A stretch of DNA of 51,469 nt from an uncultured Clostridia bacterium (GCA_947624885.1 CANQMD010000001.1:1-51469), one strand, 5' to 3'; shown: positions 41,344 to 45,666, counted from the stretch's first letter. The notes: generated from the letters alone by a model not told the origin. Made by a program: numbers and translations.

Positions 41344-41378
41344 CAAAAACAGTCGCCCAAAACAAATTGAGCGACTGT
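41344..41378 (-). terminator. Intrinsic terminator ending the AAA+/small-protein operon
   Basis: Minus strand reads ACAGTCGC-(14-nt loop)-GCGACTGT followed by TTTTT. It begins 28 nt after the stop at 41406. Confidence 0.65.
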
Positions 41379-41405
41379 TTCAAATCTTTCATACAAATTT
41401 AGGCG

Positions 41406-41867
41406 CTATAAATTTTTTGTTATGTCTTTGGGGTCCAGTTTCCCCTGGTTGACAAGCGCCAGTCTGCCGTTGTATCTGTCCACGGTTTGGCAGGCGATGT
41501 TAAACATAAAATCCACAACTCCCGTCGAAATATTGCACCCGCGATATGACGTAGTGATCCTGAATTTCACTCTGCCGTCGCGCACGTCGCAATCGAAGTT
41601 GCCGTCCGCGAGGTGGTAGTTGATATAGCAGACCGCAAGAGCGCCGTTTGATCTCTGCTCTTCGCAAAATTTGAATGGCAACGTGCAGTCAAAGATGATG
41701 ATGTCGGATTTTTCGTACAGCCACAGTTTGAATTCCATGGAAAAATCCTTTCCGCTCATGGTGATCCTCACTGTCAATTTCTCCACGTCCTTCACGTAGT
41801 TGAAGTGATGGCTGTCAAGCATATCGCATATGGTCTTGAAAACGTCAAGCGCTTTTTTGTCCGCCAT
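41406..41867 (-). CDS. Small acidic YbjN/secretion-chaperone-like protein, subtype B, copy 1
   Basis: 153 aa from MADKKALDV; AAGGAGGA lies 6 nt upstream, inside the end of the preceding gene. Shares the core ..LPFKF..A-AVC-IN..LADG-FD-D-RDG...F-[IL]T-SY...DRYN.. with 42504-42965. Confidence 0.8.
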   Translation of the reverse strand: MADKKALDVFKTICDMLDSHHFNYVKDVEKLTVRITMSGKDFSMEFKLWLYEKSDIIIFDCTLPFKFCEEQRSNGALAVCYINYHLADGNFDCDVRDGRVKFRITTSYRGCNISTGVVDFMFNIACQTVDRYNGRLALVNQGKLDPKDITKNL

Positions 41868-41869
41868 AG

Positions 41870-42358
41870 TCAATCCTCCTTGTTAAAGATGATCTTCTGC
41901 ATCTCGTCGGTCGAAACCTTCCTGTCCACGATATCCTTAAACTTGTCGTTGTATTTGTCCGTGGTCACGCAAGCGCACATCAACAGATATTCCAGCGACT
42001 CCTTTGAGAACGCGCCGTCCCTGTACGAAGATGTGATCCTGTACAGAATGTTGCCGTTTTCCACGTTGTAGTCAAAACTTCCGTCCACAATGCAGAGATT
42101 GGCAGCGGTGACCGCCACCGCCATAGGTTTGCGCATATCCTCCGGCACATCGAACGGCATAGGCGAAAGCAGCAGAATGATATGCAAGTTCTCATCGAAA
42201 CTTATCCTGACGGGGATCACCAGATCGTCGCCCTTCGCGTTCAGCGATATGGTGAGTTGTTGCGCGTCTTTATTGTACTTCCACGCATGCTCGTCAAGGT
42301 ATTCGCAAAAAGCGTCAAACACCTTGCGCGCGCCTGTGGCATTCTGTTCTGTCGGCAT
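41870..42358 (-). CDS. Small acidic YbjN/secretion-chaperone-like protein, subtype A, copy 1
   Basis: 162 aa with GAGGAGG RBS. Core ..KGDDLVIPVRI..PMPFDVPE..AVAVTAANLCIVDGSFDYNVENGNILYRITSSY..DKYNDKF... About half the positions look identical to 42971-43468 by eye. Confidence 0.8.
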   Translation of the reverse strand: MPTEQNATGARKVFDAFCEYLDEHAWKYNKDAQQLTISLNAKGDDLVIPVRISFDENLHIILLLSPMPFDVPEDMRKPMAVAVTAANLCIVDGSFDYNVENGNILYRITSSYRDGAFSKESLEYLLMCACVTTDKYNDKFKDIVDRKVSTDEMQKIIFNKED

Positions 42359-42503
42359 AATATCCTCCTCTTTTTATTCTCCAACGGTTGCGATAGGCAC
42401 CCGCAAGATCATATCAAACATCTTTGCAAAAATGCCCGCCTCGCTTCAGCGCAAAACGAGCGCGTTGCGTCCTTCGCCCCGCGCCCGTTCAGGCAATATA
42501 CGC

Positions 42504-42965: not shown

Positions 42966-42970
42966 AATTT

Positions 42971-43468
42971 TCACTCCTCCTCCGGCTCTTCGTAGATCAT
43001 TGCAACGATCTCGCCGACGGTCATATCTTCCTCCGCCAATTTCTGGAACTTGTCGTTGTATCTGTCCGCGGTTATTGCGGCGCACATCAACAGATAGTCC
43101 ACCAAATCCTTTCCTATGATGCTGTTGCGGTAGCTTGACGTGATCCTGAAGACAATTTCGCCATCTTTCACGGCGTAGTCGAAGCTGCCGTCCGCGATGC
43201 AGTAGTTTGCCGCCGTGACTGCCAAGGTCATTGCGATCCTCTTCTCTTCCGGCACAACAAACGGAATGCCCGAAAACACCGAGATTATCTGCATAGCGGG
43301 GTCGACCGCTATTTTGAGCGGGATCAACAGATCGTCGCCCTTCGTGGCGAGGATCACTTTCAGTTCATCCTCTTCCTTTTGATACTTCAGATCGCGCGAA
43401 TCGAGGTATTCGCAAACGGTGTCAAAAACGGCTTGCGCCTGTTTGAGGTCGTCTTTTCCTGTTGCCAT
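42971..43468 (-). CDS. Small acidic YbjN/secretion-chaperone-like protein, subtype A, copy 2
   Basis: 165 aa with AAGGAGA RBS. It starts 36 nt after the AAA+ stop. Core ..KGDDLLIPLKI..GIPFVVPE..TLAVTAANYCIADGSFDYAVKDGEIVFRITSSY..DRYNDKF.. Confidence 0.8.
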   Translation of the reverse strand: MATGKDDLKQAQAVFDTVCEYLDSRDLKYQKEEDELKVILATKGDDLLIPLKIAVDPAMQIISVFSGIPFVVPEEKRIAMTLAVTAANYCIADGSFDYAVKDGEIVFRITSSYRNSIIGKDLVDYLLMCAAITADRYNDKFQKLAEEDMTVGEIVAMIYEEPEEE

Positions 43469-43504
43469 AAATTTCTCCTTTTTGTTTATTTTTATTTTAT
43501 TTCA

Positions 43505-45547
43505 TCAATAAAATCCAAATTTCGACTTCTTCGGCAGGTCGATCGAAAATTCCTTGTCCGCGGTCGCCATTTCAAAGTCCTTTGCGGTCATGACGACTTC
43601 CTTTTGCCCCGCAAGCTGGCAGCGCAGCGCCGCCTTTGCCCATATCCTCTCGTACAAGTTGCGCACAAAGCGCCCGTTGCTGAACTCTTTTGAGTTGATC
43701 AGATCTTCGGGCAGCGTGTCAAAGTAGGTCTTGGCGCAGTCCTTGATCGCGTCCTCGCTCTTGATGTTGGAGTTGAGCATTGTCAGGAATATCTCATACA
43801 GCTGCTCGCGCGAGAAGTTGGGAAATTCCACCGTGTAGGGCATTCTGCTGCGCAAGCCTCTGTTGCCCTCCATCAGCTTTTCCATGTCGTCGGTATAACC
43901 CGCCATGATCACCACAAAATCGTCGCGATGGTTTTCCATTTCGGCGATGAGCGTGTCAAGCGCCTCCTGCCCGTAGTCCGCCGAACTCGATTCCCCGCCG
44001 CGGAACAGCGAGTACGCCTCGTCGATAAACAGCACGGAGCCGTACGCGTCGCGGCAAATGCTCGCGGTTTTGGGCGCGGTTTCGCCGACGTATCTTCCGC
44101 ACAGATCTCTGCCGTGACATTCTATGAAGTTTCCGATGCGCAATATGCCTTTCTCTTTCAGGATCTTGCCCACTATCCTCGCAACGGTCGTCTTGCCCGT
44201 GCCGGGATTGCCCACAAAGCGCATATGTATGCTTGGCGTGTCCTCGTTGGCGAGTCTGGCAAGCTGGATCTGCGCGACGATCTCGTTGACCTGGGTCTTG
44301 ATCGCCTCGTTGCCAACAAGTTCGTCCAACATCTGCTGACCGGACTTGTACGCTTGCGACTTTGAGCGGCACAGTTTCATCGCGTCGTTCTCGGTGATGA
44401 CGTCGCTGCCCTTTTTGCTGTCCGCATTTTTCAGCAGTTTTGCGTAGATCAATTCGTCGACGACCTTTTTCACCGTCTTTATGCCGTAAAATCTGCCGTC
44501 GCTCTTCTCCTCGGTGATCCTCAGCCACAGCGGATCGAGCGCCGCTTTGCGCACGCTGAAGCCGCGTTGTTTGAGTTCGTTCACGGCAAATTCCAGCATC
44601 TGCTCCCGCGACGCGGGCGGAAAACTCACCAGCTTCGTCGTGAGGATATCGTTCAGCGACGCGCCTATGTGTTCCACAAGTTCTCTCTCCACAAACGGGA
44701 TTCTGAAAAACACGACTATGCAGTTCTTGTTGGATTCGATCGCCTTCAACAACGCCTTAAACTCGACGCTGTCCGTCCTGTTCATCCACTCGCTGATGTC
44801 AAGCGCAAACACCGCGCGTTTCGTGCTCGAATTCGGCGAAAGCAGTTTGGATATGATCGCGTCAAGCTGATCCGGCTTGTCTGTGCGAGGAGGCAGCACA
44901 TACTCCCTCACGCGATCTCCGACTCCCAAGCCCAGCGAGCGCATAAGCGCCGTCAGCCTTTGAGTCGCGGTGCTGAAACCGCACCCGTCGCTTACCGAAA
45001 ACAGGTATGTGCGCGACAGCAACACACCCTCAAGCCCTCTCGTCTTCGCCTCAGGCGCGATCCTGATCAACTCGTTTGCCAAGCGCACAAGTTCCTCCGC
45101 GCCCGCAAGCGCCTTTATGCTCTCCAGCGCCTTTTCGGGAGTGAGCTCGTCCTCGTCGTCGTCCTCATTGCGCCTTTCCCTCGGCGATTCAAACGACTTA
45201 TCCGTCGTCCCCTGCTGCGTTCTTTCCCCCGTGTGTCTTTCGTCTGCGGAGTCCTTTTTTTGCGGTTGCTGTTCATCCTCCCCCTCTCCCAGCACGGAAA
45301 CGGTGATCGCGTCCTTCGCGCCATCTCCGTATTTTGCGGAAAAGATCTCCATGATCTCGCCCTTTACGGCTTTGGGGTCGTCCTGCGTTTCCAACTCGAT
45401 GGTGAAGTCCATCAGGCTCTCGTCGCCGACTTTGCAGCCCAATTTTTTGACGATTTCCTCAGCCAGCGCCTTGACAGGCAAAACGTCGTCGGAGCGATGG
45501 TCCAGCACCCAATCTCTGCGAAGTTCAATGTTCAAGCGTAACAACAT
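43505..45547 (-). CDS. AAA+ ATPase of the SpoVK/CbbX/EccA clade with N-terminal domain, acidic linker and a degenerate first AAA-like module
   Basis: 680 aa. Walker A GNPGTGKT (aa 446-453, nt 44189-44212, verified by back-translation). Walker B VLFIDEAY (nt 44012-44035). IMAGYTDDM..GNRGLRSRMP matches CbbX/SpoVK sensor/Arg regions. Residues ~150-340 are AAA-sized but lack a P-loop (LLSRTYLFSVSDGCGFST; AVFALDISEW). Residues 88-135 are highly acidic and polar. Confidence 0.88.
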   Translation of the reverse strand: MLLRLNIELRRDWVLDHRSDDVLPVKALAEEIVKKLGCKVGDESLMDFTIELETQDDPKAVKGEIMEIFSAKYGDGAKDAITVSVLGEGEDEQQPQKKDSADERHTGERTQQGTTDKSFESPRERRNEDDDEDELTPEKALESIKALAGAEELVRLANELIRIAPEAKTRGLEGVLLSRTYLFSVSDGCGFSTATQRLTALMRSLGLGVGDRVREYVLPPRTDKPDQLDAIISKLLSPNSSTKRAVFALDISEWMNRTDSVEFKALLKAIESNKNCIVVFFRIPFVERELVEHIGASLNDILTTKLVSFPPASREQMLEFAVNELKQRGFSVRKAALDPLWLRITEEKSDGRFYGIKTVKKVVDELIYAKLLKNADSKKGSDVITENDAMKLCRSKSQAYKSGQQMLDELVGNEAIKTQVNEIVAQIQLARLANEDTPSIHMRFVGNPGTGKTTVARIVGKILKEKGILRIGNFIECHGRDLCGRYVGETAPKTASICRDAYGSVLFIDEAYSLFRGGESSSADYGQEALDTLIAEMENHRDDFVVIMAGYTDDMEKLMEGNRGLRSRMPYTVEFPNFSREQLYEIFLTMLNSNIKSEDAIKDCAKTYFDTLPEDLINSKEFSNGRFVRNLYERIWAKAALRCQLAGQKEVVMTAKDFEMATADKEFSIDLPKKSKFGFY

Positions 45548-45637
45548 AGTGATTCTGTCCTTTTAATATTTTTCAGCCCGAAAGCTGTTTTTATTTTCTG
45601 TGCCTAAAAAAACAAGTATATATCCTTACAATATAAT

Positions 45638-45666
45638 ATGATACCACCCAAAATCGTCCCCGTCAA
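45638..45666 (-). promoter_or_regulatory. Candidate sigma-A promoter for the AAA+/small-protein operon
   Basis: Minus strand reads TTGACG (45661-45666), 17 nt, TATCAT (45638-45643) with TG at -15/-14. It lies ~90 nt upstream of the ATG at 45547. Confidence 0.55.

Follow-up and report, generated by a model that had tools for sequence, protein, structure and literature searches.

The window analysed here is a 51,469-nucleotide (nt) stretch of DNA from an uncultured Clostridia bacterium, in which five closely packed open reading frames (ORFs) on the minus strand (41406-45547) encode a AAA+ ATPase and, downstream of it, four small proteins of two subtypes, designated A2, B2, A1 and B1. The operon that joins this ATPase to small proteins of the same family is a real and conserved feature of gut Clostridia. 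A literature search found no publication describing the module, in keeping with the original prediction, made from the sequence of the window, that no described system has this composition. The parts come from known superfamilies, whereas their combination and the architecture of the ATPase appear to be undescribed.

The gene cluster and its signals

From the upstream end, the cluster and its flanking signals are arranged as follows.

45666-45638, minus strand: promoter-like site, TTGACG-17-TATCAT with a TG extension; 10 of 12 consensus positions, the best in the region, a consensus match only
43505-45547, minus strand: ATPase gene (ORF), 680 residues; a distinct family inside the SpoVK/CbbX/EccA clade
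42971-43468, minus strand: A2 (ORF), 165 residues, subtype A; orthologue of the single A gene of relatives
42504-42965, minus strand: B2 (ORF), 153 residues from ATG, subtype B; translationally coupled to A2 across a 5-nt gap and falling in the B clade
42359-42503, minus strand: inter-pair spacer, 145 nt; weak terminator-like hairpin inside, promoter-like match at its upstream edge
41870-42358, minus strand: A1 (ORF), 162 residues, subtype A; an extra, more divergent copy
41406-41867, minus strand: B1 (ORF), 153 residues from ATG, subtype B; an extra copy with near-neutral isoelectric point (pI)
41378-41344, minus strand: intrinsic-terminator-like hairpin followed by a T run, closing the gene cluster; identified by folding against shuffles

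All five same-strand ORFs, together with the promoter match and the terminator hairpin that had been predicted to bracket them, were confirmed. The closing hairpin was missed by a simple terminator scan and detected by folding against shuffles (-23.4 kcal/mol, z = -6.0; 0/200 shuffles fold as well), while promoter-like matches show no enrichment across the region (5 found versus 3.3 expected). Starting B2 and B1 at ATG gives 153-residue products, the same forms that are recorded in a public protein collection. The intergenic gaps measure 36 nt (ATPase-A2), 5 nt (A2-B2), 145 nt (B2-A1) and 2 nt (A1-B1), and GGAGG-type ribosome-binding sites lie inside the final codons of A2 and A1, so that the tight spacing within pairs and the buried sites of both B genes are as first described.

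The gene cluster and its end signals agree with the single five-gene operon that had been proposed, but a terminator-like hairpin of weak signal lies within the 145-nt spacer (42461-42434; -20.5 kcal/mol, z = -2.3) and a second promoter-like match, TTGAAG-17-TATATT, straddles its upstream edge (42523-42495). The five genes may therefore not form one obligatory transcript, and the A1-B1 pair may be transcribed or regulated separately. The two-pair arrangement is repeated in two independent metagenome assemblies, L090 and L091 (related loci are referred to by such numbers), which differ from the window at 10 nucleotide positions over the four small genes, 9/10 of the differences being synonymous; the spacer sequence is identical in L090. 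An assembly artefact as the origin of the A-B duplication is excluded by the recurrence of the two-pair layout in L090 and L091.

The ATPase and the small proteins

The ATPase can be divided into five parts, given here with their positions in the window.

45287-45547, minus strand: N-terminal domain, residues 1-87, beta-alpha-beta-beta-alpha-beta; from an AlphaFold2 (AF2) model with predicted local distance difference test (pLDDT) scores of about 90 here
45140-45286, minus strand: linker, approximately residues 88-136, acidic, disordered and variable; from AF2 pLDDT and homologue alignment
44372-45139, minus strand: D1, predicted degenerate pseudo-AAA+ module, residues 137-392; from AF2 topology and Foldseek
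43568-44350, minus strand: D2, active AAA+ module, approximately residues 400-660; from alignment to CbbX and EccA1, catalytic state predicted from motifs
43508-43531, minus strand: C-terminal tail KKSKFGFY, residues 673-680; family pattern [KR]K-x2-3-[ILF]-G-F plus 0-3 residues

Pfam recognises one AAA domain (residues 444-576) and AAA_lid_6 in the ATPase. The best NCBIfam match is the SpoVK model TIGR02881 (234 bits versus a cut-off of 423, E = 1e-69), with the CbbX model TIGR02880 (204 bits versus 459, E = 2e-60) and the EccA model TIGR03922 (198 bits versus 467, E = 3e-58) also matched, and residues 400-660 match CbbX (E = 4e-50) and EccA1 (E = 9e-43) among PDB sequences. Residue-level alignment of D2 with CbbX (E = 1e-50) keeps all catalytic motifs over the full length of the module, as does that with EccA1. 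The motifs include Walker A (GNPGTGKTT, 446-454), Walker B (FIDEAY, D509-E510) and the pore-loop residue Y486, which lies in GRYVGETAPKT where CbbX has GQYIGHTAPKT. Conservation was read from 39 full-length ATPase sequences of 46-72% identity: A549-G550-Y551, aligned with AGY of CbbX and EccA1, is invariant in all 39 homologues, as are N562 and R568 of N562-R-G-L-R566-S-R568, aligned with NPGFRSR of CbbX, and R626 and R629 of the sensor-2 segment N624-G-R626-F-V-R629-N, aligned with NARSIRN of CbbX. The D2 motif residues are invariant in this alignment with the exception of R566 (nt 43850-43852), which is R in the window ATPase and A or K in most family members, and nearly all remain so in a 36-species alignment. 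This Arg, the earlier of the two in N-x-G-x-R-S-R, has been termed the first arginine finger (PMC11513918). Since all the CbbX/EccA1 motifs are kept, including the three features said to define the SpoVK-EccA-like clade (AGY, the N-x-G-x-R-S-R box and the sensor-2 arginine; PMC11513918), D2 is, on its sequence motifs, a catalytically complete member of that clade, yet neither SpoVK, CbbX nor EccA. The clade had been named correctly in the original prediction, which missed both a degenerate module preceding D2 and a conserved C-terminal tail.

The region upstream of D2 was modelled with AF2 (residues 1-400, mean pLDDT 82.9). In its N-terminal domain W13, H17, D20, L23, P24 and Y73 are invariant in the 39-homologue set, only W13 and P24 staying so over a wider 29-species set, and a profile of the domain gave no match to PDB sequences. 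The linker that follows has pLDDT < 50 at residues 88-131 and a pI of 4.4 over residues 90-140, and differs in length and sequence among homologues. The modelled D1 has AAA+ topology, with CbbX (3syl) as its top Foldseek match (E = 8.6e-11, 274 columns), but SDGCGFST stands in the place of Walker A and LDISEW in that of Walker B, and the Walker A lysine is gone. Because a CbbX-type fold is combined with replaced Walker A and B motifs, D1 is, according to the model, a degenerate duplicate of a CbbX-like AAA+ module. An hhalign comparison of D1 with D2 was collinear with motifs in register, but weak (probability 18%, E = 1.4e-3), so the assignment depends on AF2 and Foldseek; a D1 profile against PDB sequences gave nothing useful, leaving the fold comparison as the informative one.

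At the other end of the protein, the pattern [KR]K-x2-3-[ILF]-G-F plus 0-3 residues closes 37/37 full-length orthologues from different species, with the G and F invariant in 36 species. By analogy it may resemble a docking tail: ClpX carries an IGF loop, the [LIV]-G-[FL] tripeptide of Clp ATPases docks ClpP, and proteasomal ATPases have C-terminal docking tails (HbYX).

More than 100 full-length homologues of the ATPase (46-68% identity) were found, mostly metagenomic, the few named ones being metagenome-assembled genomes (MAGs) of Clostridia or Clostridiales; an exact-match search of a contig index with the window ATPase returned nothing. Searched against a library of 1.84 billion proteins, the N-terminal half (residues 1-400) retrieved 580 clusters at 50% identity, most of them 660-750 residues long; a minority are longer and match only from D1 onward, which suggests that these carry a different N-terminal region.

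Like CbbX, SpoVK and EccA, the ATPase has a catalytic module that aligns over its whole length with CbbX and EccA1 with motifs kept, and a variable N-terminal region that presumably recruits substrate. Unlike them, it scores below all three equivalog cut-offs, adds to the catalytic module a degenerate CbbX-like one, a novel N-terminal domain and, at its C-terminus, the invariant [ILF]-G-F, and has its genetic linkage with YbjN-like genes instead of those for Rubisco, sporulation or type VII secretion. Its N-terminal region spans 400 residues with two domains compared with about 40 residues in SpoVK proper, and in contrast to EccA of ESX systems it has no TPR domain and, in the window and at annotated related loci, no EccB-E/EssC or WXG100 neighbours.

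The four small proteins fall into the two alternating subtypes originally recognised (A2-B2-A1-B1), and the estimate of about half the residues identical within a subtype held, with pairwise identities of 47% for A2/A1 and 44% for B2/B1 and of 29-36% over the full length between A and B (B2 is 33% identical to A2 and alignable over its full length). The shared core motif that had been read by eye matches the alignment columns invariant in all four, namely P69, F70, E74, A83, V84, N88, D93, G94, F96 and D97, and further G103, T110, S112, Y113, D135, Y137 and N138. The description of all four as acidic is correct for A2, B2 and A1 (pI 4.3-4.7) but not for B1 (pI 6.8; D+E = K+R = 21).

Against PF10722 (YbjN; cut-off 22 bits), A2 and A1 pass with 29.1 and 22.5 bits, B1 scores 16.9 bits and B2 gives no match, while 36/46 members of the small-protein family match YbjN at E <= 0.01. 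No NCBIfam model exists for the small proteins, and their profile gave nothing useful against PDB sequences. The AF2 model of A2 (pLDDT 92.3) consists of an alpha helix, four beta strands, an alpha helix, two beta strands and two alpha helices, and its Foldseek matches (probability 0.99-1.0) are ExsC, the best, together with E. coli YbjN, AmyR, DR1245, SicP, SycE and CesT; the TM-score for the SicP target is 0.79, and the heterodimeric SycN-YscB is also among the matches. Fold modelling was carried out on A2 alone, with B2, A1 and B1 assigned by homology, and on this basis the small proteins are predicted to have the fold of YbjN and class I type III secretion chaperones, as had been proposed.

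The likeness to these proteins (E. coli YbjN, Erwinia AmyR and Deinococcus DR1245 among YbjN-family comparators; ExsC, SicP, SycE, CesT and SycN-YscB among type III chaperones) thus lies in an alpha-beta-alpha fold, small size, mostly acidic character and, in SycN-YscB, a precedent for heterodimers. Unlike them, the small proteins form their own sequence family with two order-fixed subtypes, set apart by the family-specific invariant motifs DG[SN]FD and DxYN, and have a AAA+ gene adjacent in 64/80 loci; unlike type III chaperones, they have no type III apparatus and no adjacent effector gene in the window or among the annotated neighbours of related loci.

Linkage across genomes and neighbouring genes

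A scan with the small-protein profile, one genome per species, returned 250 relatives, of which the best 80 loci were analysed; their hosts are nearly all gut Clostridia MAGs labelled Christensenellaceae, Acutalibacteraceae or Oscillospiraceae. Arrangements were counted with family hidden Markov models on all ORFs of the 80 loci. The ATPase gene lies directly upstream on the same strand in 39/80 (28 with two small genes, 11 with one), which answers the call for neighbourhood mining made in the original prediction. In 26/80 the small gene instead adjoins a gene for a protein of about 1160 residues with AAA_2, AAA and Peptidase_M41 domains, so that one or other AAA+ partner is adjacent in 64/80, one locus having both; the 16/80 loci with neither include several at contig ends. 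All 28 two-gene loci with the ATPase keep the order ATPase, A, B on one strand, the median gap being about 20 nt ahead of the first small gene and about 11 nt ahead of the second. Downstream of each of three divergent ATPase homologues lies one gene pair encoding proteins of about 158 and 157 residues.

In a neighbour-joining tree the first-position proteins (A), second-position proteins (B) and singletons form three separate groups, and A1 and A2 of the window fall together, as do B1 and B2. Subtypes A and B are thus shown, at the level of sequence comparison, to be ancient and co-ordered. ATPases with a single small gene score 796-887 bits against the family profile and those with an A-B pair mostly 950-1220 bits (the exception, L068, scores 873), and the small proteins of single-gene ATPase loci fall together with those linked to M41.

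Four small genes were found at none of the other loci in the set of 80, which have one pair or a single gene, and the duplicated pair that had been presented as a feature of the system is therefore lineage-specific. Synteny with the window is seen in its closest relatives, L087 (ATPase 68% identical) and L088 (56%), which share with it the order cation-efflux gene, ATPase, A, B, convergent DUF2804 gene and a gene for about 417 residues, and in the window and L087 a response-regulator/histidine-kinase pair lies further upstream. Both relatives have a single A-B pair. Compared with L087, the proximal pair of the window is 55% (A2) and 57% (B2) identical and the distal pair 48% (A1) and 46% (B1), from which A2-B2 is judged to be the orthologue of the relatives' pair and the more divergent A1-B1 a lineage-specific extra copy. 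The DUF2804 gene (40103-41215, plus strand) and a gene for a 423-residue protein with no Pfam match (38671-39942, minus strand) keep their synteny with the operon in L087, L088 and L090, which may reflect a functional link or vertical inheritance alone. In L087 a type II CRISPR locus (Cas9, Cas1; 11971-15691) lies about 4 kb downstream of the operon, a place occupied by other genes in the window.

At other loci the neighbours are variable and often of the kinds found in conflict systems. They include a Card1-like CARF nuclease, RyR-domain proteins, an Endonuclea_NS_2 nuclease, HTH_3 regulators, a set of one or two vWA genes with a gene for about 700 residues and a Ser/Thr kinase, a TIR-methyltransferase, SLATT/DUF4231, nSTAND1, a transglutaminase, Tubulin_2 with vWA, and type IV coupling proteins. 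Leaving the HTH regulator aside, a recurrent accessory family is present in 17/39 ATPase loci and none in the other 22/39, and a vWA gene in only 4/39. When all neighbours of the 80 loci were clustered for a universal third partner, no non-AAA+ family occurred in more than 16/80, and none of the recurrent accessory families is present in the window, where the 606-residue upstream protein, considered as a member of an accessory family of about 600 residues (F3), proved unrelated.

Several of these neighbourhoods are distinctive. In L036 (7433-10450) the small gene stands beside genes for a Card1-like CARF-PD-(D/E)xK nuclease, a protein of about 273 residues with a weak Sigma70_r2 match and one of about 85 residues. 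The same trio occurs in L039, L055, L062, L065, L073, L083, L084 and L086, although in some loci, such as L065 and L083, the nuclease is not next to the pair, and by analogy it recalls CalpL-CalpT-CalpS, in which a protease, an anti-sigma factor and a sigma factor are combined. In L043 (32-10468), L050 and L078 a tandem-AAA+/M41 gene and a single YbjN-like gene lie directly downstream of rpoB-rpoC, a housekeeping position unlike the island-like contexts of other loci. L060 (9420-17142) has an A-B pair that lacks a neighbouring AAA+ gene and stands ahead of genes for an 830-residue vWA protein and a 1260-residue Tubulin_2 protein, a layout resembling the tubulin-vWA conflict systems (Kaur et al. 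2020, PMC7159879).

PADLOC, run on the five proteins and the neighbours at related loci, gave generic AAA+, kinase and CARF matches and no named system. Searches of phage by tblastn with the ATPase N-terminal half and A2 gave no match, a BFVD fold search gave nothing significant, and a plasmid search gave one distant YbjN gene, in Anaerotruncus and in an unrelated context.

Possible functions of the module

The observed domain architecture, folds, catalytic motifs, gene linkage and subtype order can be brought together in a tentative model, given rather less than an even chance, in which the small proteins would be an adaptor or holdase pair for a dedicated unfoldase. The ATPase would assemble as a two-tier hexamer, with D1 as a non-catalytic scaffold ring and D2 as a catalytic ring of CbbX/SpoVK type whose Tyr-Val pore loop would pull a polypeptide segment. 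A:B heterodimers would hold a client protein or extended segment and either present it to the ATPase for entry into the D2 pore or be stripped of it there, the logic being analogous to that of type III chaperone-effector complexes split by the export ATPase, of EspG with EccA and of MecA with ClpC. Because a M41-fused AAA+ partner takes the place of the ATPase in other genomes and the [ILF]-G-F tail is invariant, unfolding might, speculatively, be coupled to proteolysis by a partner peptidase in trans. The divergent A1-B1 pair would then widen or split the client range in this organism.

Consistent with the adaptor model, the catalytic and pore-loop motifs of D2 are all kept whereas D1 has the AAA+ fold without canonical Walker motifs, and a heterodimeric chaperone, SycN-YscB, is among the structural matches of A2. 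The SpoVK-EccA clade has been described as one of chaperones with narrow substrate ranges, whose variable N-terminal regions recruit the substrate (PMC11513918). Like MecA-ClpC, ClpS-ClpA and SspB-ClpX, the module encodes small dedicated partners together with a AAA+ unfoldase and has an [LIV]-G-[FL]-like motif that could dock a peptidase, although it differs from these pairs in unrelated adaptor folds and in a tripeptide in the C-terminal tail and not in a loop.

Several points weigh against the adaptor model. No client gene is recognisable in the window or as a universal neighbour at the 80 loci. The N-terminal regions of the two AAA+ partner types look unrelated by eye, which leaves no obvious way of docking common to both. 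The likeness of the tail is to the tripeptide of Clp ATPases, which sits in a loop and not in a tail. Furthermore, the family does not conserve the first Arg of N-x-G-x-R-S-R, and no peptidase association has been reported in the SpoVK-EccA clade (PMC11513918).

An alternative, regarded as unlikely though deserving attention, is that the small proteins are themselves the regulated targets, sequestering an effector or regulator in a partner-switch or antitoxin-like manner until the AAA+ protein unfolds or degrades them on a signal and frees the partner. The best structural match of A2, ExsC, is a partner-switching regulator, and CesT-CsrA is likewise among its matches. The protease-fused AAA+ partner at 26/80 loci would suit such a mechanism, as would the nine loci at which a small gene lies beside the genes for the 273-residue protein with a weak Sigma70_r2 match and its 85-residue partner, and others at which it lies beside CARF-PD-(D/E)xK nucleases. 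However, the sigma-like assignment is a short, weak match, the window and 22/39 ATPase loci have no recurrent accessory gene able to be the partner, and two ancient co-ordered subtypes suit a structural heterodimer better than a simple inhibitor.

A second proposal, improbable to about the same degree, concerns biological role and is compatible with either the adaptor or the partner-switch mechanism. The module would be the core of an anti-phage or conflict system in which the chaperone-like proteins would recognise or trap a protein of the invader and the AAA+ protein would relay the response or carry it out, the window copy being minimal, effector-less or domesticated. Related loci with a CARF nuclease, vWA and kinase, RyR, TIR-methyltransferase, SLATT/DUF4231 and nSTAND1, some beside type IV coupling proteins, point in this direction, and conflict systems have been described as combining a conserved core with accessory genes that vary (PMC7159879, PMC9503650). 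Inactive and active FtsH-type AAA+ modules in tandem, sometimes with a unique N-terminal domain, are known in the MoxR-vWA 'FtsH ternary' conflict systems, which occur in Deltaproteobacteria, Actinobacteria and Planctomycetes, not Clostridia, and for which no YbjN-like partner has been reported (Kaur et al. 2020, PMC7159879). Compared by description, the present module likewise has a dead AAA+ followed by an active one and, at some loci, vWA neighbours, but its active module is of CbbX/SpoVK type, no MoxR gene was seen and the window has no vWA gene. The 'TY-chaperones' of the type III/YbjN superfamily are predicted peptide binders in ARG-centred conflict systems (PMC9503650), which, unlike this module, have no AAA+ partner. 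Against a defence role, PADLOC found no system-level match beyond generic AAA+, no phage homologues were found, and a recurrent accessory family occurs in only 17/39 ATPase loci. The operon moreover occupies a stable, syntenic housekeeping context between cation-efflux and DUF2804 genes in three species, and the M41 version directly follows rpoBC in three species.

More doubtful still is a joint reading of these proposals, in which type III/YbjN-fold chaperones would be an unrecognised adaptor or sensor class for Gram-positive AAA+ proteolytic machines, the ATPase docking a peptidase in trans via [ILF]-G-F, and the module would be the core of a conflict or stress system with the tandem-AAA+/M41 protease as its fused counterpart.

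The export and sporulation roles raised in the original prediction are not supported: elsewhere the small-protein family is paired with a AAA+/M41 protease, often among defence-type genes, which favours unfolding or proteolysis. A secretion-chaperone system, EccA/EspG-like or type III-like, for an export apparatus whose genes lie in another part of the genome would draw on the relationship of the ATPase to EccA1 and on the type III secretion chaperone fold of the small proteins, but is very improbable: the N-terminal region of the ATPase is not the EccA TPR domain, its score against the EccA model is 198 bits for a cut-off of 467, and YbjN-family proteins are known outside secretion (PMC5398634, PMC3575483). 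As originally noted, the 51-kb window holds no recognisable secretion component or WXG100 gene, and extending this to the annotated neighbours of the 80 loci gave the same result, leaving the analogy with ESX and type III secretion unsupported. Equally remote is a role like that of SpoVK, as a chaperone for a biosynthetic enzyme in sporulation or the cell envelope, for which the top NCBIfam match (SpoVK, 1e-69), a host belonging to the Clostridia and the action of clade members on enzymes such as MurG (PMC11513918) speak, set against a SpoVK score of 234 bits for a cut-off of 423, a 400-residue N-terminal region unlike the SpoVK N-terminal domain of about 40 residues (PMC11513918), the absence of sporulation genes linked to the operon and the labelling of many hosts as Christensenellaceae, which are not known to sporulate. 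No Rubisco genes are present in the window.

The module is conserved and unstudied in abundant gut Clostridia, and it offers a concrete, testable pairing of YbjN-like proteins with non-canonical members of the SpoVK/CbbX/EccA clade, both of them families whose functions are little understood. If the chaperone-like pair feeds an unfoldase, partnerships between secretion-type chaperones and ATPases would reach beyond secretion systems. Should the C-terminal tail dock a peptidase, the view of the clade as never protease-linked, made up of non-degradative remodellers, would need revision, and this ATPase would be its first protease-coupled member. Because defence-type neighbours recur, the family is a candidate to be screened for anti-phage activity.

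Outside the operon the window is ordinary chromosome, with two-component systems and an alpha-galactosidase among its genes. Two Peptidase_C11 (clostripain-family) genes (459-2459 and 21036-23069) and a gene for a 2593-residue MBG-domain protein, probably a surface protein (24526-32307), are likewise ordinary for gut Clostridia and unrelated to the operon.

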